Shown here: positions 55,315 to 64,000 of the stretch, one piece after another
Layout of the letters: every line of letters starts with the position of its first letter
Position numbering within the stretch: position 1 is the first letter of the stretch
Virus record (IMG/VR): IMGVR_UViG_3300031784_000023
Location: 7,254-71,253 of that record
DNA length: 64,000 nt
Origin: a virus
Reading direction: 5' to 3' (one strand)
Notes under the pieces: generated by a model
The model's database searches: none
Seen by the model: only the letters and a program-made list of their open reading frames with translations
Told to the model about the DNA's origin: nothing
Program-made: the position numbers and the translations under genes

Positions 55315-58290
55315 CTACCGCCCACGTAACAACTCAGATAGACCAAACTCAAGTTTGCCTGGATTCCAACGCTGGCCAGCCAACTCCAATCGCCGCTGCA
55401 ACTCAGAACGATTTTGCTGACGTTGCTGTTCGGTTCGTTGTGCCTGAGTCAAAGGACGAACTTGCGCAGTTAACGGCTGTGGACCTGTACGAGCAGGACT
55501 GGCCACGCCGGTTCGAGGCGCAGTACCAAGAGCCTGACGCAACTTAGGTACAATGCCTTCTCCAGTTTCCTGGCGCACCACTTCGTTCAGTGCCCTGGCC
55601 CCCGCAGTGCCGACCATACCTGCTCCCACGCCGGGAGCTAATACCGGTACAGCGGCCAGAGCAGCAGAATATGCAGCCGCCTGCGGCAAACTCTGCACAA
55701 ACTCCGTGCCCATTTGCTGAGCCATAGGTCCGAGCCCTTCGCGATATCCAGTTTGAATTGCCTCAGGGCTAGGAATCAAATCAGCGGCGCCAGGTAGTAA
55801 CGCCGCAGGTGTACGACGAAGTGCCCGTACGTACTCGCCGACCCCCTGCGCTGCCGCAGTAGCCGGATCCATCGAGTAATACGATTTAGCGGTCAGCGGT
55901 TCCCGCGACTGAATAACTTCAGCACGAAGAGGACGAGGATCACCTTCACGAGGATTGATAATCGCCACGCCGCCTGTAAGTGAGGGAGCCGGGCGCTCAG
56001 CCTGAAGAGGAACAATATTCCCTTCGCTGTTCATGTACAACAACTGCCGCTTCTGATCTGTCAGCGGTCCAAATCCAACAGAACGGTAAGCAGCGGCGCG
56101 ACGGTTCGGTTGCCGTCCGACAAATTCTTCCTCCCTACGCAGAATAGAACTTTCCGCAGCAGATTTACCTTGACTTTCACGTAGACGTGCAAGGTCAGTG
56201 GTTTCGATGGGGGAGTTTTCTAGCAGCATCCCAGGACGTAAGTTACGGAGTACGTTCTCCGAAATGAACCTGTTCATCTGCTCAAATACAGGAGCAGGTA
56301 TCTCCTTAGCACTATAATCAAAATCTTCAGTAGGAGTCTGTGTTTCAAAAGAAACACCAGACATCCCAGTTACAGGATTATCTTGTAAAAACTTGAGTAC
56401 GTTTTTAGAAATTTCACCACTGCCCGCTAAATCCGTACCGCCCATACGGAAACGAACAGGGGCAGCCGATGTGTGCATACGAATACCATATTCACCTGAC
56501 GGATCTAAACGAGCCTCGCCCGTAGCTGGATCGTACGAAAATCTAGCTTCAGAAGGAACTTTTTCAAGATTTGGATTCCGTAAAGCGAGAGGACCCGCCG
56601 TGGGTGACATACTTGATGTCGTAGGAGTGTTGACTAAATTTTCGAACTCATTCGCACGTTGACGGATAAGAGACATGGCGTCTTGCAATTCTTGTCCCTT
56701 CGCGTAACCGCCGCCACCTACAACAGGCATACGGCGAGAAACGGCAGGAGAAGAACCGGCTTCCAGTTCCTTGCCATAGCCCATCAGGATCAATTTATCA
56801 ATAGCTTCTTTTTGTTTAGCTGTATCACCGCTGGTGTAATCGAGCTCAATCTGAGATAAATAGGAAGGCTGCACAGCCAATTCCTTCATTGCACGGTTAT
56901 AAATATTTGAACGCGCTTCCGGCTTGGAAATTTCCTGCTCTAAATCGAGATAAGGCGCCAGTTTATCGATATCCCGTTCTACAGTAGGTTTCGGGTTGGC
57001 AATGAAACTCTGCATATAAGGACCAACCTCAGGGTATTTCTCAATAAATTTATTCAGCTGTGCTGCTTGTTCTTTGACAGCTTCCTGTCGTCCTGCTTCT
57101 CTGATGTCAAATAGTTGATTTTCTAGACCGGGGATAGCAGGCTGGGCAAACTCCTCCATAGGCCGAGCCGGAATAAGAGGATCCAGACCCGCGACAGACA
57201 TATCTAAAGTTCTCAGTGTACTGGATAAGTCAAGCCCACGCGGGTCCGCTGCGCTCAAATCTTGTTGAAGCTCATACAGTGAGTTTCGACGAGGGTCTAC
57301 CGCTAGCCTGTCGGCTCCCCTCAAGATAAATTCACGCCTTGAGGGACTGACCTGATCGAGTGGAGCAATAGCGTCGGCGACTTGTGGAAGAACTACCGAA
57401 CCTTCGATAGGGAAAGTGTTGATCGGTCCACCTGCTCCTCTAGTTTGTCTGAGCTGTCGTAACGCTTCTACTTGCTCATTGAGCTCCTGCATAGTGCGAG
57501 GAGGAGTATTTCTGATGCTTTCATACGATTCCTGGATGCGGGGGTCCACCACGCGGAGCGGTAGCCCAGGCTGAATAGTGTTGCTATTAATTCGATTAGC
57601 TAAGGGATCACGAGTGACTGCATCACTGTCCGCGTAAGCTAAAAGCGTATTACGCGCCCCTAATCCCGACTCAATAGGATAAATAATTTCATCTGCCTGT
57701 TCTAGAATATCAGCGACATTTTCTAAATTTCCAGAATAATCTACATCAAACCTATTTGTATACGGCTGCAGAAGATCATTTAGCGCTGTTCCCGCTTCCT
57801 CGCTGTAGTTAGCGTCGGATAAAAACCTTGATTCGCCCGCATAACGAAGGGTTTCACGTTGAGCGGGAGTTAGCGTCCCTGCATTTACCGCGTTTAAATA
57901 AGCATCACGCGCTGCTTCGATAGTATTGCCCGGCAGCAGACTTGTTATGTCGTTGTTTTGTTCAACGAATTGTCTGACTTTAGGATTCTCCGCCGCCATC
58001 CTGTACGCATTAAGCGTCTCATTGTCGGGATCTATATCAAAACCTTGAAACGGTAGGTAGTTAGGGAAATCTTCAACGGAAGCCATTTGCCCGGCTTCGT
58101 CTACATCCACATCGGGATATATCTGAGAAAGGGCTTCGTCCAGTTCTCCCTCAGTGAGAGCAGACTCAAATAACATATCCCGGAGAGCATTCCGGTTAAC
58201 GCGATAGTTCCGGCCTAGTTTCTCCGCCGCTTCTGGAAGACGATCAATAAGAGTACGATCCGGAAGTCGCTCAAAACCTGAAGAACTCAC
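55315..58290 (-). CDS. Large hypothetical protein (991 aa), possible internal virion protein
   Basis: Long ORF with no recognised catalytic motif. Confidence 0.7.
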   Translation of the reverse strand: MSSSGFERLPDRTLIDRLPEAAEKLGRNYRVNRNALRDMLFESALTEGELDEALSQIYPDVDVDEAGQMASVEDFPNYLPFQGFDIDPDNETLNAYRMAAENPKVRQFVEQNNDITSLLPGNTIEAARDAYLNAVNAGTLTPAQRETLRYAGESRFLSDANYSEEAGTALNDLLQPYTNRFDVDYSGNLENVADILEQADEIIYPIESGLGARNTLLAYADSDAVTRDPLANRINSNTIQPGLPLRVVDPRIQESYESIRNTPPRTMQELNEQVEALRQLRQTRGAGGPINTFPIEGSVVLPQVADAIAPLDQVSPSRREFILRGADRLAVDPRRNSLYELQQDLSAADPRGLDLSSTLRTLDMSVAGLDPLIPARPMEEFAQPAIPGLENQLFDIREAGRQEAVKEQAAQLNKFIEKYPEVGPYMQSFIANPKPTVERDIDKLAPYLDLEQEISKPEARSNIYNRAMKELAVQPSYLSQIELDYTSGDTAKQKEAIDKLILMGYGKELEAGSSPAVSRRMPVVGGGGYAKGQELQDAMSLIRQRANEFENLVNTPTTSSMSPTAGPLALRNPNLEKVPSEARFSYDPATGEARLDPSGEYGIRMHTSAAPVRFRMGGTDLAGSGEISKNVLKFLQDNPVTGMSGVSFETQTPTEDFDYSAKEIPAPVFEQMNRFISENVLRNLRPGMLLENSPIETTDLARLRESQGKSAAESSILRREEEFVGRQPNRRAAAYRSVGFGPLTDQKRQLLYMNSEGNIVPLQAERPAPSLTGGVAIINPREGDPRPLRAEVIQSREPLTAKSYYSMDPATAAAQGVGEYVRALRRTPAALLPGAADLIPSPEAIQTGYREGLGPMAQQMGTEFVQSLPQAAAYSAALAAVPVLAPGVGAGMVGTAGARALNEVVRQETGEGIVPKLRQALGTAPRTGVASPARTGPQPLTAQVRPLTQAQRTEQQRQQNRSELQRRLELAGQRWNPGKLEFGLSELLRGR

Positions 58291-58396
58291 GACACCCGAA
58301 GCGATCCTTTCTATCCATCATACCAAAATACTTAAATGCAGCAGGGTTCCGTGCCGGGTGCCGTGCTACCATAGCACTGCATCACATCAAAAGCAC

Positions 58397-58741
58397 ATGG
58401 CCAACGCAATGCTCTGCATCGAAATCTATCAGTTTAACGGAACTTGGTGCTTTACAGATCTAAAACGCGAATTAGTACACGAACCTTTTGTTCTAGGTAT
58501 TCCTGAAATCATAAACACTGTTCTGGAAAACAACTCTTTGTACGAAGACGGCAAAAATTACAGAGTCTTATTCGCGGAACAGGAATTCCCTGAGGTCCAC
58601 GGGGTGCTAAATCAAGTTCGCGAAGAGTTCAATGGCGCTTGGTACGAGTGGAACGGGGAAGAGGGGTGGCTGTGCCCCGCTACATTGGCATTTTTCGATT
58701 ATTTTCCCGCTCAAATTTATTTTCGTTTTGAAAAACTGTAG
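58397..58741 (+). CDS. Hypothetical protein
   Basis: WCFTD..REL..EPFV.G...EGWLCPA...FF. Confidence 0.7.
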   Translation: MANAMLCIEIYQFNGTWCFTDLKRELVHEPFVLGIPEIINTVLENNSLYEDGKNYRVLFAEQEFPEVHGVLNQVREEFNGAWYEWNGEEGWLCPATLAFFDYFPAQIYFRFEKL

Positions 58742-58787
58742 TTAACCTGCCCGTCTTAACATACATAAGTACTCTGACCTCCCCTTC

Positions 58788-58979
58788 GTGGCACGGGAGT
58801 GGAATACCCCTACACGCGAGCCGTGGAACGGGGTCATTAAGACAGCACTAGACGCTGTTGACCAGCACAACGCATTTTATTTCCGCTCAAACGACCATAA
58901 ACACCTAATAGCAGCCGAATTGCTACGAAGTTACGTAAAATTCCTCAAAGATTTTCTTATAGAAGCCGAAAAAGTTTGA
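58788..58979 (+). CDS. Hypothetical protein
   Basis: REWNTPTREPWN. Confidence 0.6.
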   Translation: MAREWNTPTREPWNGVIKTALDAVDQHNAFYFRSNDHKHLIAAELLRSYVKFLKDFLIEAEKV

Positions 58980-58983
58980 CCTG

Positions 58984-59011
58984 TCGCCCCACGCGGGCGA
59001 TTTTTTTTTTT
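58984..59011 (+). terminator. Rho-independent terminator
   Basis: TCGCCC-CACGC-GGGCGA followed by T11. Confidence 0.85.
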
Positions 59012-59392
59012 GTCGGGGGCCTGCCTGTATGCTGATACTAAAACTTTTACCCCCTGTTTTCCAGCAAGATTTACAAAGGGTTCTCGCCGGGGGCGACGTC
59101 AAACGCACACAATTAAAAAAAAGGGGCACATTGCGTACAGACGCGCGGGTGCGGGGGAGCTGAGTTTGTATAACGAATCAAATAGCAATCGCTATGTATT
59201 ACAAACTCCTACTCTTGTTCTATTCTTTTCACTGAGCGGGGGAGGGTACCCCCTTTAACTAAAGACAATTCAGATCGTGAAGCCGCTTGACTAAAGGGCA
59301 GACGTGGTGCTAGCGCGTGCGCCCGCGCGCTTTCCTTTAGCTAGCTAGCTGACTGTGCTTTGTGTGCTTTTGCTGACCGCTCGCTTAGGGGG

Positions 59393-59422
59393 TTGACGGG
59401 ATGCGCTGATGGGGGTTACCTT
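59393..59422 (+). promoter_or_regulatory. Putative sigma-70 early promoter
   Basis: TTGACG-18 nt-TACCTT upstream of the structured region and early genes. Confidence 0.5.
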
Positions 59423-59462
59423 TGGGTCACTGGAGGAACGGGGCGCGAGCCACGCCGCCAGG

Positions 59463-59480
59463 GCACCTGGACAACCGAAT
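59463..59480 (+). promoter_or_regulatory. boxA-like element 1
   Basis: GCACCTGGACAACCGAAT preceded by GGC-GCGA-GCC hairpin. Confidence 0.55.
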
Positions 59481-59616
59481 CAACTCTCGCGACGGCCGAA
59501 CTGGCCCCGCGCGTCTGCCGCTGATGGTAGGGAGTACTTCCCCGAAGTGTAGGCAAGGGCAGGCATGGTGTGCCGGAACGAGTGCGGCGAGAGTTGTAGT
59601 AGGTAACTAGGTGAAA

Positions 59617-59634
59617 GAACCTTGACAATCGAAT
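59617..59634 (+). promoter_or_regulatory. boxA-like element 2
   Basis: GAACCTTGACAATCGAAT preceded by TGCGGC-GAGA-GTTGTA hairpin. Confidence 0.65.
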
Positions 59635-60267
59635 AGTAAAGGCTGAATAGGCGTAGTAGGTAAAAGCCGAGAGCGGATCAATGCGTGCGGGATTGGCGGA
59701 AGAGAGCCAGCGCACCGCTCTGTTGACAAACTACAGGCATGTTGTCTGTGGGCACACTGAACCGGCCAGCCATTGTCAGACTGTAACTTGTCAGCTGGCA
59801 CCTTTAACTAGGTGACTGGTTGGCATAAAGAACTGATCAGTAGAGTCGTTCTCTACATTTAGCGACGCAACGGTATTCGTCACCGTGGCTAGTGCTAGTT
59901 ACAGAGTTCAGTTTGTCTGCCTGCAGGCTTTGTCCAGAGTAACTGTCCTTAGTGCAGGTACTCTGGACACAGTTGCGAGCGAACCTCACCCGGTCGTTGT
60001 CCGGCGATGGCGGTTCAATCCGTGCAAAGTGTAGATAAACTGTGCTCTGTAACTAACACAATGCGTTTATTTTAGTTTGGGGCAACAGTTCCTAACTGTA
60101 TTAGGGCGGAGCCTGTTAACTACTAGCTTTGTCCAGGTTAAGTATTAAGTTTGATCCGATAGGATCATTCTTGATCACAGACTAGATTCTCTCCCCCAGC
60201 CACGCGGTTAGGTGAGGGATTCTTCCCTCTTTGTTGTTAGCTGCCAGCCATGTAGCTGGTGAATGTT

Positions 60268-60585
60268 ATGGACATCAAGACCAACAATCAGCCTCGTCAA
60301 CCTATGTCAGGGCTGACCCTTTCTTTGTTTGTCGGTGACAAGCAAGCTGCCAAGATTCGCAAGCAGTTTGATTACCTAACTGACACTGAGTTCGAGGATG
60401 AATCATTCATTATGTACAAAGGTTATGTGTACGCAATGTCTGACTTCATGCGTATTGAACAGGATTCCACTGGTGATCTTGCACAGTCTGGCTGGCACGG
60501 TTACAGCTCAGACTCATTCTTTAGCGGCGTGTTAATCAAACTGTGTGATGACGGCGATGTCATCCTTGGTCGCTACTGTTCCTGA
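60268..60585 (+). CDS. Early hypothetical protein
   Basis: WHGYSSDSFFSGVLIK. Confidence 0.7.
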   Translation: MDIKTNNQPRQPMSGLTLSLFVGDKQAAKIRKQFDYLTDTEFEDESFIMYKGYVYAMSDFMRIEQDSTGDLAQSGWHGYSSDSFFSGVLIKLCDDGDVILGRYCS

Positions 60586-60616
60586 GTTCTCTAACTAACC
60601 TAATTACATTCAGATC

Positions 60617-60871
60617 ATGAACTACACTTACACAGCTTCACACTTCCCTAACAATGTCAGTTGGTATCGTGAACTTGTGCACCTTGATGGTGAAGTTGTC
60701 GGTGAGATTAGCGAACCGACCGACTCTACTTCTGCACGCAGGATCTATCGCGTGGGTAAGTATGTCCCCTTTCAAGTTGCCAATGGGTGTGTAGATCTTG
60801 TCAGCTTTGTGGCTAAGTTCGACACAGTTTCTGAATGCAAAGACTTCATCAACAACGGAGGAATCAAGTGA
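60617..60871 (+). CDS. Early hypothetical protein
   Basis: ORF track. Confidence 0.65.
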   Translation: MNYTYTASHFPNNVSWYRELVHLDGEVVGEISEPTDSTSARRIYRVGKYVPFQVANGCVDLVSFVAKFDTVSECKDFINNGGIK

Positions 60872-61074
60872 ACACTTTTACTCTCCCAACTGGCCGTCAA
60901 GTTGAGAAGAACGCCACGCACTGTGTGGCTGTTAAGACTCGCGGCCGCTGGAATCACCAGTGGTTCAAGTCTGACCGTGGCGCACAGAATGAGATCAAAC
61001 GTCTGCGCAGTTACAGTGCAGACACTGTTGCGTACTACGACATTCAAGAGTTCAAGCTTATCCGTCCCGACTGA
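60868..61074 (+). CDS. Early hypothetical protein
   Basis: GGAGGA RBS, GTGA-coupled. Confidence 0.65.
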   Translation: MNTFTLPTGRQVEKNATHCVAVKTRGRWNHQWFKSDRGAQNEIKRLRSYSADTVAYYDIQEFKLIRPD

Positions 61075-61175
61075 TTCTCTCCTGTAGCTATCCCCGGACT
61101 GCACAACAGTTCGGGTTAGTTACATGAGGGGTTCTCCCTCATTGTGTTAGCACTCACCTCTTCGTGAGGATTGTT

Positions 61176-61508
61176 ATGACTTTAACTCGCAACACCGAGA
61201 TCATTGCACCACGCGCTGTTGAGTACTTGTCAGGCGAGGAGTCTGGCTTGTTTACCTACGAAGACTTGCAGGATATTGCACTGCGTGGTTGCGCAAGGAT
61301 GGCACCAAACAAGCTCGCGTATTATCACGATACGTGGGACTTCTTCATTGAGTTTGAGGATGAAGTAGAAGACTTCTTCTACGATAAGTACGGCGACACT
61401 TGGCTAGATAAGTTCTCCAACAACAGCACAAGTGTTCGCGGCATGGTTAATCACATGGTGTGGACCTTTGTCGACTCCATTGCTAAAGAGATCACAGGAA
61501 TCAAATGA
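61176..61508 (+). CDS. Acidic early protein
   Basis: DIALRGC...YYHDTWDFFIEFEDEVEDFF. Confidence 0.7.
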   Translation: MTLTRNTEIIAPRAVEYLSGEESGLFTYEDLQDIALRGCARMAPNKLAYYHDTWDFFIEFEDEVEDFFYDKYGDTWLDKFSNNSTSVRGMVNHMVWTFVDSIAKEITGIK

Positions 61509-61559
61509 CTATCATCCCGCTAGCGCGGGGCCAACTCACACAATTACAACACCAACATC

Positions 61560-61835
61560 ATGGCACAGATTCAACACTACTGCGCACAGAATGATCGCAA
61601 CGGTAACCCTCGCCGTTGCTATGTGTTGCTAGATCACGGCAATCCTATTGCTGCGTGGGATGAACAATTCTATGGGCACGACGCTGTGCCTGGTGTGTGG
61701 CGCAACGATGCTTACCACGCCGAACGGATTAACTGCACAATCGCAAAGTACAAGCAACTACTGCGCACACTTCCTTCACCTAACTGGGCACATGATGTCC
61801 CCGGTTACTCACATCTCCGCACACTCTGTTCCTGA
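61560..61835 (+). CDS. Early hypothetical protein
   Basis: NDRNGNPRRCY. Confidence 0.7.
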   Translation: MAQIQHYCAQNDRNGNPRRCYVLLDHGNPIAAWDEQFYGHDAVPGVWRNDAYHAERINCTIAKYKQLLRTLPSPNWAHDVPGYSHLRTLCS

Positions 61836-61837
61836 CT

Positions 61838-62032
61838 ATGTACGACACTGAAATTGCACTCGATCGTGAGTTCATGCGTCGCATGATTCGAGCATACGAG
61901 CAGGATCTATTGCAGCTAGTTAATGAAACGCCTGATCATCCCGGTGGTGATTGGGCGCAGGAGCATTTACAGCTGCTGGAACTGCTGCGACAACAAACAT
62001 TCTCCCCACTCAAACAATCCATCAGATTCTGA
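61838..62032 (+). CDS. Early hypothetical protein
   Basis: ORF track. Confidence 0.6.
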   Translation: MYDTEIALDREFMRRMIRAYEQDLLQLVNETPDHPGGDWAQEHLQLLELLRQQTFSPLKQSIRF

Positions 62033-62034
62033 TC

Positions 62035-62250
62035 ATGATGTACAACCACATCCGTGAGTTTCACAAAGACCAAATCCTGCACGTTGTTAACAACTACATG
62101 ACGTCAGAGATCCGCAACCACTTGATGCGCGAATGTCCGGCCGCATACAACGCATTGTGTGGCCGTGTAGTTATCACGTCGCAGGTACAAGATACGGGCC
62201 GCAAGATCATCGAGCGCCCTACAGATGTACATCTTTCTGAATTTGATTAA
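62035..62250 (+). CDS. Early hypothetical protein
   Basis: Internal ATG of ORF 61951-62250. Confidence 0.6.
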   Translation: MMYNHIREFHKDQILHVVNNYMTSEIRNHLMRECPAAYNALCGRVVITSQVQDTGRKIIERPTDVHLSEFD

Positions 62251-62299
62251 CACCGCTGCGCGGGCCGATTCACCTAATTACAACAACATCACAAACACC

Positions 62300-62575
62300 A
62301 TGCAAGAGCCTAACCTTGTCCTACTTGATTCCCACGGTGTGTACATCCCGCAAATCTATTGTGAGGATGCAGACGAACACTGGGCTAACTGTGTCGGCGT
62401 TGATTACAAAGACGTGCTGATCTGTCAGGCTGGCCCAGATCACGAATGGTACTGGGAAGCATGGCAGAACATCTTAGACAACGCCAGCATCGTTAGCGAT
62501 GGTGTAACATGGCGGCTGCATCAGGATGGCGATCTGTGGGAAGTTCCCGACGGATACGAATGGCCTGATGCTTGA
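62300..62575 (+). CDS. Acidic early protein
   Basis: GVYIPQ...GPDHEWYWEAW...LHQDGDLW. Confidence 0.7.
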   Translation: MQEPNLVLLDSHGVYIPQIYCEDADEHWANCVGVDYKDVLICQAGPDHEWYWEAWQNILDNASIVSDGVTWRLHQDGDLWEVPDGYEWPDA

Positions 62576-62633
62576 ACCTGTCCCGCTACGCGGGGCGCCC
62601 TCACACAACACCTAGCCTTTTACCTTACTCACA

Positions 62634-62813
62634 GTGAATCACTTTCCTTACGATCTCTACAAACTCGACAGTTATTCTCTGTCTTACCACGCGCTCGCCA
62701 GGTACAAACAGATCCTGCGCGATGAAGTACTACCCTTCGATGTACTTGCCCGCATTGAAGACGACATCATCCCTGCACTCGAAGCAATTATTCTTGTGCA
62801 CGAATCTCTCTGA
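62634..62813 (+). CDS. Early hypothetical protein (59 aa, manual)
   Basis: GTG start, MNHFPYDLYKLD... Confidence 0.5.
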   Translation: MNHFPYDLYKLDSYSLSYHALARYKQILRDEVLPFDVLARIEDDIIPALEAIILVHESL

Positions 62814-62844
62814 TCTTTAACTAACCAACGACAGGACTCACATC

Positions 62845-63192
62845 ATGCGTAAGATCGAACAACAGATGTTGGACGCGATCCGCGAACGTCGCAACTGGAA
62901 GTGTGGCAACACAGAAGTAGCCGCAACAGTATTTACCCACGTCAAGAAACCAATCGACCGTGTGACTATTTATCTACACGGTCACCCTATTGCAGTAGTT
63001 ACACCCGACACAGTTACCGTATCCGATTGCGGCTGGCAGACACCTACAACGAAGAGTAGGCTAAACGCTTTGCTGCGTGACTTGTGCGGCGCTGGTGTTT
63101 ACCAGAAGGATAAGAAGTGGTATGGATACGCAATCGAAGAGACTGAGTGGTTGATTGAGAAGTATTCCCGTCACGTATTTGTTAGAGCTTAA
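62845..63192 (+). CDS. Early hypothetical protein
   Basis: MRKIEQQM...LHGHPIA...GWQTPTTKSRLNAL. Confidence 0.75.
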   Translation: MRKIEQQMLDAIRERRNWKCGNTEVAATVFTHVKKPIDRVTIYLHGHPIAVVTPDTVTVSDCGWQTPTTKSRLNALLRDLCGAGVYQKDKKWYGYAIEETEWLIEKYSRHVFVRA

Positions 63193-63398
63193 CCAAACAA
63201 GGAGCTGATACCTAACCCAGCCAACCCGCCTAACAGTTCTGGTTTGTTAATGCCAGGCGCGGATTCTCCACCGGGTCCGATACCTGGCACACCAGCAAGT
63301 GACCCGGCGACACCTAAAGGCATCCGCCCAACTAAACCGAACGGGCCGATGTTTTCGTCGATGTACTTGCTAAGAAACTGAGCAGCTAACTGTTCCAC
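63189..63398 (-). CDS. Gly-rich hypothetical protein
   Basis: Lone antisense ORF with AGGT RBS. Confidence 0.45.
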   Translation of the reverse strand: MEQLAAQFLSKYIDENIGPFGLVGRMPLGVAGSLAGVPGIGPGGESAPGINKPELLGGLAGLGISSLFG

Positions 63399-63428
63399 TT
63401 CAACCTGAACCTTTGCCTAAGTCTAACA

Positions 63429-63596
63429 ATGCCTTACTACATTCAACGGCGAGACGACACCAACACTGTCGAAACAGTCGACGAGATCACAGACTCAAAG
63501 GAAGCTTATCGTGTGGCTCGTGAGTATGGCTTAGCCGATCCCACGGCCCGTTACTACATAGCGAAGAAACCCTGTAAGGCATGGCTTGAGAGTTAA
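63429..63596 (+). CDS. Early hypothetical protein (55 aa, manual)
   Basis: MPYYIQRR...ETVDE...EY...YYIAKKPCKAW. Confidence 0.6.
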   Translation: MPYYIQRRDDTNTVETVDEITDSKEAYRVAREYGLADPTARYYIAKKPCKAWLES

Positions 63597-63643
63597 TGCC
63601 TCTCCCGCTTCGCGGGGCCGCCGCATAATTTATCAACACAAAC

Positions 63644-63961
63644 ATGAAACGTCTTTTCGCGTTAATTCCTTTCATTGTCTTGTCTCCGATGCAAGCACGA
63701 ACTGTAAATGCCACTGTGTACCATGAGTGGTATCACAATCGCACAACTTACTGCGGACAAACGTATCAACATTGGGGATTGTCGGCGGCACATCCTTGGT
63801 TGCCTTGCGGCACAAGAGTCAGAGTTACTCACGGAAGCAGATCTCTAACTGTGCCCATAACGGATCGTTGCGATTGCAACTCGATTGATTTATCCGCCGG
63901 CGCTGCCTATCGGTTAGGCATACCGCTTGATGACACAAGGAGGGTACGTATAAGTTATTGA
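63644..63961 (+). CDS. RlpA-like double-psi beta-barrel lytic transglycosylase with signal peptide
   Basis: SAAHPWLPCGTRVRVT...ITDR...IDLS. Confidence 0.85.
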   Translation: MKRLFALIPFIVLSPMQARTVNATVYHEWYHNRTTYCGQTYQHWGLSAAHPWLPCGTRVRVTHGSRSLTVPITDRCDCNSIDLSAGAAYRLGIPLDDTRRVRISY

Positions 63962-64000
63962 TCTGAGCAACCTACAAATCTTCTCGATTCATCTGATGAT

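Follow-up and report, generated by a model that had tools for sequence, protein, structure and literature searches.

The closest described counterparts of the element reported here are the promoter-early stem-loops (PeSLs) of the T4-type phages RB49 and phi1 (Arbiol et al. 2010, PMC2839356), which have the same place and build. Hairpins also mark the early promoters P1 to P3 of phage N4; according to an N4 review, these promoters are read by a virion RNA polymerase of ~3,500 amino acids (aa) and are conserved from -17 to +1, and DNA hairpin loops of the G..A type are remarkably stable (PMC4496689). We analyzed a 64,000-nucleotide (nt) stretch of viral DNA, referred to as the window, which corresponds to bases 7254 to 71253 of a single 71,253-bp IMG/VR virus record (IMGVR_UViG_3300031784_000023); coordinates below are window positions. 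Four composite hairpin cassettes lie between early phage genes in this window, and they represent a real, conserved, and lineage-restricted intergenic element. The element is specific to one lineage of uncultured cyanophages with genomes of ~70 to 87 kb, distant kin of Synechococcus phage S-EIVl, and a narrow search of the literature on PeSLs, N4 hairpin promoters, and S-EIV1 found no description of it.

The initial annotation of this DNA had proposed four small GC hairpins between early genes, placed shortly after stop codons and before an A/C-rich leader, and without a U-tract. All of these features were found (Table 1). The hairpins follow the pattern CC(C)GC-N3/4-GCGG(G), start 2 to 7 nt after stop codons, and end 27 to 39 nt before the next start, with the leaders in place. 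No T-run follows any of the four; their stems run into GGCC and A/C-rich sequence. None of the hairpins is among the 16 terminator-like sites (GC hairpin plus U-tract) by which positions 58000 to 64000 are enriched (5.7 expected). The stem of element 2 is only 4 bp long, its outer A/G (C/T on the minus strand) being unpaired. For element 1, RNA fold prediction yields a formed hairpin and an unpaired leader. The start codon downstream of element 3, the GTG of a 59-aa open reading frame (ORF), is uncertain.

Chance can be rejected as the source of the hairpins on the basis of three results. The pattern CCGCNNNGCGG has 5 matches in the window, of which 3 are elements, versus 1.02 expected, and 0 of 100 shuffles reach this number. 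Throughout the 71,253-bp record, CCCGC/GCGGG stems are confined to element sites. Finally, a profile derived from relatives matches the record exactly four times, at the four elements (E of 6.5e-10 to 1.3e-4). The 4-nt-loop pattern by itself is not significant (4 matches, one of them the element 1 hairpin, versus 1.35 expected; 6 of 100 shuffles also give at least 4). A scan of positions 57000 to 64000 against Rfam gave no match at E up to 1.

Each hairpin forms the 5' half of a conserved cassette of ~45 to 60 nt between genes. The unit of the initial annotation, a hairpin with its leader, is indeed present, but it omitted the conserved ~20-nt motif 3' of the stem. The full layout is a stop codon, 0 to 8 nt, a GC hairpin of 4 to 6 bp, the core GGCC(A/G)A(C/A)TCACACAAT, a G-free A/C-rich stretch, and ATG. 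IMG/VR searches anchored on proteins retrieved 11 and 80 related loci, with 255 relatives found in the second of them, and in these loci the fixed motif always stands after the hairpin. The consensus of the relatives reads CCGC-T(N1-2)C-GCGGGGCC(A/G)A(C/A)TCACACAAT(C/T)AC, again followed by the G-free A/C-rich stretch and ATG. Conservation is 70 to 100% per column from the 3' arm to CACAAT, ~20 nt past the stem (~26 nt contiguous). Spacing is similarly constrained: the gap between stop codon and hairpin is at most 8 nt in 38 of 41 copies with a called upstream ORF, and GCGG is separated from ATG by 27 to 31 nt in 35 of 50 copies with a called downstream ORF (range, 19 to 47). The leaders are composed of 37% A, 38% C, 9% G, and 16% T, with G residing mostly within GGCC; the leader of element 1 contains CACAAUUACAACA.

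An nhmmer profile built from 40 copies of the element matched four near-complete genomes, which carry 4, 4, 3, and 2 copies (all at E ≤1.3e-4). All 13 of these matches fall in the early block on the gene-sense strand, and 72 of 72 matches in gene-oriented loci are on the gene strand. Every distinct copy found is in the early block and on the sense strand. Genomes hold 2 to 5 copies, confined to that block. The same kind of profile search detected no copy in S-EIVl. The exact core of 18 specified bases was present in 30 stretches among 2.9 million IMG/VR contigs, which added 32 further distinct copies to the initial 53 and brought the total to 85. In one relative (G005), the RlpA-like gene is preceded by the linear core but no hairpin; hairpin and core are therefore separable modules.

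Within the set of 53 distinct copies, stem pairs 1 and 2 are invariant. The third pair is C-G in 51 copies, A-T in 1, and broken in 1, the fourth is C-G in 50, T-A in 2, and broken in 1, and the fifth is C-G in 32, with T.G (9 copies) and A.G (8 copies) among the other forms. Compensatory stem variants, 3 among the 53 copies with 1 broken, indicate that the hairpin is under selection. Across all 85 copies, the sense-strand loops are TAAC (29), TTC (28), TAC (13), TAGC (5), TTGC (3), TGC (2), TGAA (2), and TAAA, TCC, and TAT (1 each), so that 45 loops are 3 nt long and 40 are 4 nt long. In 81 of 85 copies (51/53 and 30/32), the sense loop has the form T..C, for which the template strand reads G..A. 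The initial annotation had held that its view of the hairpins as DNA-level signals would fall if homologs did not keep G..A loops; they do keep them. In triloops, the template-strand center is a purine in 29 of 45 copies (28 GAA and 1 GGA) and T or C in 16 of 45.

We tentatively favor the reading, based on these sequence features, that the element is an RNA-level intercistronic signal that combines a hairpin capping the upstream cistron with an unstructured ribosome-loading leader lacking a Shine-Dalgarno (SD) sequence. Host RNA polymerase would produce a long early transcript, on whose sense strand the cassette would work. The hairpin would close off the upstream cistron, with a putative role in protecting its 3' end once the single-stranded tail has been cleaved, and would also prevent base pairing between the leader and the coding sequence upstream. 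The G-free tail, unable to fold, would be the SD-less pad on which ribosomes load to translate the first gene of the following module, and the genes within a module would be translationally coupled. Probably, the fixed core is read by a sequence-specific factor, e.g., host RNase E, the ribosome or S1, or a phage early regulator. An RNA role is favored because the G-poor leader is strand-specific and because the RNA fold leaves the leader unpaired.

A second spacer family, devoid of the hairpin, is found in the same early regions. It follows the pattern TGTAACTAAC...CAAT...ATG or, with stop codons in several frames, TGA..(TG)TAACTAAC..CAAT..ATG; these spacers are often exactly 31 nt long and contain 9% G. 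Since 31 nt is too short to hold a promoter, the hairpin-less spacers favor a polycistronic early mRNA. A single long early transcript would also fit the other features of the region, namely, the short spacers, the 2-nt separation of the genes in the first module (61560-62250), the lack of sigma-70-like promoters at positions 58000 to 64000 (0 versus 6.3 ± 2.7 expected from shuffles), the rarity of SD words (SD-like 4-mers precede only 19 of 89 ORFs genome-wide), and the long upstream leader. In such a transcript, each module would start with a ribosome loading pad, and some pads would be preceded by a hairpin. The element is a sharply defined, lineage-specific regulatory signal in distant kin of S-EIVl, a phage whose early gene expression is not known to have been studied, and it offers a handle on the definition of early modules, on the factor that reads the element, and on SD-less translation in cyanobacterial hosts.

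Several observations weigh against the RNA-level signal or fail to support it. Beyond mere pairing, the stem sequence is nearly invariant, and the core is conserved base by base; a plain stabilizing hairpin is insufficient to account for this, because it needs neither an invariant stem nor a fixed core. Wobble asymmetry is uninformative as a test of the folding strand, T.G and A.G being about equally frequent at the fifth pair (9 and 8 copies). CACAAT keeps the -10 positions A2 and T6 in at least 90% of 40 copies. The G..A loop rule, by analogy, favors a DNA-level or template-strand role. UNAC is a stable type of RNA tetraloop, but among the observed loops only UAAC resembles it, and we know of no stable RNA loop type that matches the others. 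The RNA model leaves the loop rule unexplained, and this leaves room for a rarer DNA-hairpin signal, weighed below, in a phage without an N4-type polymerase. Finally, although 11 metatranscriptome runs hold small shares of the window, no contig of the four sparse metatranscriptomes examined crosses a hairpin. The contigs are short and of low depth, lie mostly over the leader at 59.0 to 60.1 kb, and do not allow ends and strand to be read from them. RNA contigs from two runs of different studies (X1 and X2) both end at 59182, and one from another run (X10) ends at 59008 in a terminator T-run. These contig ends, noted for the region 59021-59182, hint only weakly that RNA ends lie in the leader. 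The leader also holds, near 59366, a 7-nt complement of the core, at chance level by our own estimate.

The record, which is 88% complete by CheckV estimate and has no end repeats, belongs to a tailed phage encoding a portal, an intein-bearing large terminase, tailspike-like proteins, a D5-type primase, and thymidylate synthase. Its portal is 41.9% identical to that of S-EIVl, the sole match among 50,697 phage records, and one of its early proteins contains a Kyano_Gp96 domain; on these two grounds, a cyanobacterial host is likely. The RlpA-like protein encoded after element 4 has 255 relatives in IMG/VR, and its bacterial relatives are only distant (metagenome-assembled genomes of Thermoleophilia); a genome-contig scan with this protein returned no cyanobacterial genome. 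In a 78-kb relative (G001, also L101), a tRNA-like T-arm sequence (GGTTCGATTCCC) is located downstream of the RlpA-like gene, at ~73,820-73,900 of that record. Between two modules of the early block, 236 bp (63193-63428) contain no plus-strand gene; this segment is missing in the closest relative (L013), in which the flanking genes abut.

Table 1. Positions of the elements and of other features in the window
Feature	Position	Strand	Details
Element 1 hairpin	CCCGC 61516-61520, loop TAGC, GCGGG 61525-61529	+	T61515.G61530 wobble; stop 61506-61508, gap 7 nt
Element 1, whole	61515-61559	+	core GGCCAACTCACACAAT to 61544, G-free leader to ATG 61560; nhmmer E 6.5e-10
Element 2 hairpin	CCGC 62253-62256, loop TGC, GCGG 62260-62263	+	stop 62248-62250, gap 2 nt
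Element 2, whole	62253-62299	+	variant core GCCGATTCACCTAAT, leader to ATG 62300; nhmmer E 1.3e-4
Element 3 hairpin	CCCGC 62582-62586, loop TAC, GCGGG 62590-62594	+	stop 62573-62575, gap 6 nt
Element 3, whole	62582-62633	+	core GCGCCCTCACACAAC, longer leader to GTG 62634; nhmmer E 1.4e-5
Element 4 hairpin	CCCGC 63604-63608, loop TTC, GCGGG 63612-63616	+	stop 63594-63596, gap 7 nt
Element 4, whole	63604-63643	+	variant core GCCGCCGCATAAT, leader to ATG 63644 of RlpA-like gene; nhmmer E 6.5e-5
Hairpin-less spacers	60586-60616; 62814-62844		also in many relatives, e.g., L009, L027, L125, L144
Early-gene block	60268-63961	+	small genes (ORFans or domains of unknown function [DUFs]) punctuated by elements; between ~1.2-kb non-coding leader (5') and primase (3')
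Early-block modules	61560-62250; 62300-62575; 62634-63192; 63429-63596; 63644-63961	+	
RlpA-like secreted small protein gene	63644-63961	+	PHROG "lipoprotein precursor"; early block, directly after element 4
991-aa ORF	55315-58290	-	rich in Ala, Pro, Gly, Gln
Other GC hairpin, TCGCC-GGG-GGCGA	59084-59113		CACACAATT 11 nt later plus A8 run; downstream of strong T10 terminator 58983-59011

An unlikely but by no means far-fetched alternative is that the element is a compact promoter fused to a stem-loop, as in PeSLs. The hairpin would attenuate or insulate upstream transcription, and host RNA polymerase would read the core through the -10-like CACAAT, ~17 nt from the loop center, while a phage or host factor bound near -30 would take the place of the -35. 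The ~26 nt of contiguous conservation, from the 3' arm through CACAAT, is like that of phage promoters, and the constancy of A2 and T6 points the same way; however, neither a -35 nor any sigma-70-type match is present at 58000 to 64000, and CACAAT as a -10 would leave a 5' untranslated region of only ~4 to 9 nt, as derived from the spacings. Like PeSLs (PMC2839356), the element heads gene modules in an ORFan-rich early region, whereas two features, the G-free leader and the constant spacing to ATG, belong to the RNA level, and no sigma factor, activator, or RNA polymerase was recognized among the early proteins (10 scanned in each of two scans). Further support might come from the other GC hairpin with CACACAAT at 59084-59113, which lies just past the T10 terminator, at a place that would suit an early promoter; this site may be the early promoter region. 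The hairpin is conserved in two relatives (L005 and L007), but TCTATT stands there in place of CACAAT, a replacement seen at this site in more distant relatives. As a member of the element family, the site was rejected, given the lack of a profile match at E up to 10 and the loss of CACAAT in more distant relatives. It is rather improbable that the element is the mRNA target of a sequence-specific early regulator that switches several early modules together, by analogy with a RegA-like translational repressor, a RegB-like endoribonuclease, or a nut/boxB-boxA-like antitermination site. Constrained loop ends next to a fixed single-stranded motif have the usual shape of protein-RNA recognition, the stem sequence is conserved past pairing needs, and the 2 to 5 copies per genome in the early block would suit such a target, yet no candidate binding protein was identified, the scanned early proteins being DUFs or ORFans, and several nut-like sites in one operon would be unusual.

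DNA-level readings start from the template strand. The initial annotation had likened the hairpins to N4 promoters, and this comparison stands for the geometry of the hairpin, with template-strand G..A loop ends closed by a C:G pair in 81 of 85 copies; it is not supported for the polymerase, the loop length, and the extent of conservation. A c(GNA)g/c(GNNA)g hairpin extruded from supercoiled DNA and read by a virion-delivered or unrecognized polymerase would fit the N4 needs as given in the review (closing pair, loop 5' G and 3' A, and sheared G:A; PMC4496689), and a start 11 nt from the loop center would be a purine (AA of GGCCAAC, by our own count in the alignment). No T7/N4-like single-subunit polymerase was found, although PF00940, with 0 matches in the record and 0 in 5 relatives, was searched with no positive control matching. 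The largest ORF is 991 aa in the record and 921 to 923 aa in three other genomes, and two complete genomes with direct terminal repeats, examined whole, have no ORF of >923 aa. In the complete relative G003, which carries three elements and a portal of 77% identity, all three ORFs of at least 600 aa are accounted for by the portal, a D5-like primase-helicase, and DNA polymerase A. The S-EIVl record has no RNA polymerase among its annotated features. The 991-aa ORF was considered as a hidden polymerase and rejected: Pfam, PHROG, and PDB sequences offer no match to it, G003 encodes no homolog of it, and its top Atlas match, at 0.78, was too low for use. Its relatives cover only the last 188 aa in G005 and the C-terminal half in G001 (43% identity), and it appears to encode a virion or ejection protein that evolves rapidly. 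Furthermore, 40 of 85 loops are 4 nt long, only 29 of 45 triloops have a purine center, and conservation runs ~20 nt beyond the stem, far past the predicted +1. An N4-style DNA hairpin promoter is accordingly unlikely, and in the form described above it is highly improbable. It is also very unlikely that a phage without its own polymerase uses extruded template-strand c(GNA)g/c(GNNA)g mini-hairpins as expression signals, with host RNA polymerase plus a factor, or a polymerase of unrecognized fold, starting early-module transcription; if true, hairpin promoters would be a convergent device outside the N4 group. The DNA-level proposal of recombination sites delimiting mobile early cassettes found no support in two tests. 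It is most improbable that the elements are, in the main, substrates of recombination or selfish repeats, homology patches that shuffle early cassettes without an expression role of their own. In close relatives, one insertion (an extra ORF after element 2 in L013) and one deletion (element 2 and its upstream gene in L014/L004) touch element 2, but 2 of 4 indel events relative to close relatives are at junctions that lack an element. Through the element, the downstream gene cluster seen most often (15 instances) is linked with 6 different upstream clusters, yet gene adjacency varies no more at element junctions than at the others of these regions: the same upstream cluster was found in 64 of 207 pairs at element junctions versus 253 of 937 at other junctions, in a test whose crude ATG-first ORF calling may inflate the control class with spurious ORFs. 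Leader copies are not homogenized within genomes (0.567 within versus 0.581 between; 384 of 500 permutations reach the observed difference). The search for an HUH or recombinase gene proposed in the initial annotation found none in the four genomes: the Y1 HUH transposase PF01797, expected of REP/RAYT or IS200-type elements, was absent from 4 of 4 (the control matched 10 of 14), and no tyrosine recombinase or integrase was detected, with controls matching. The strict strand, the spacing to stop and start codons, and the G-free leader argue for a role in expression. Plasticity extends over the whole early region, and the data do not single out the elements as its hotspots.

Read as an RNA-level intercistronic signal, the element can be compared with two further systems. 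The early operon of phage T7 contains RNase III sites, where the upstream mRNA is protected by the hairpin that remains at its 3' end. These sites resemble the element in being intercistronic hairpins of a single long early transcript that host polymerase makes, a transcript that is putative in the present case, and they differ in having long imperfect double-stranded stems, compared with 4 to 6 bp and a fixed single-stranded motif. The omega sequence of tobacco mosaic virus (TMV) is an unstructured, CA-rich, SD-independent leader with ACAAUUAC and CAA repeats. It is similar to the G-free A/C-rich leader of the element, but omega is the 5'-terminal leader of a plant virus; a mechanism common to both is conjecture by analogy. 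With N4 promoters (PMC4496689), the element shares only hairpin geometry, i.e., a short GC stem, a C:G closing pair, and a loop with 5' G and 3' A on the template strand of early genes. N4 requires the ~3,500-aa virion polymerase, no counterpart of which was found here; its conservation spans -17 to +1 rather than ~20 nt past the stem; and its triloop has a purine center (-11 A/G), whereas about half of the element loops are of 4 nt and the center is often a pyrimidine. The element is not filed under the N4 family, nor is it assigned to the PeSLs. According to their description (PMC2839356), PeSLs carry strong sigma-70 -35 and -10 sequences, an AT-rich upstream part, and an SD sequence, all of which the element lacks; their stem-loops act as terminators, while the element hairpins have no T-run; and recombination between their copies has been shown, in contrast to the two negative tests reported here. 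What PeSLs and the element have in common is a GC stem-loop of fairly conserved sequence, repeated in an ORFan-rich early region at the head of small genes, and in both a stable stem-loop is part of a conserved cassette that bridges the gap between the upstream stop codon and the downstream ATG.

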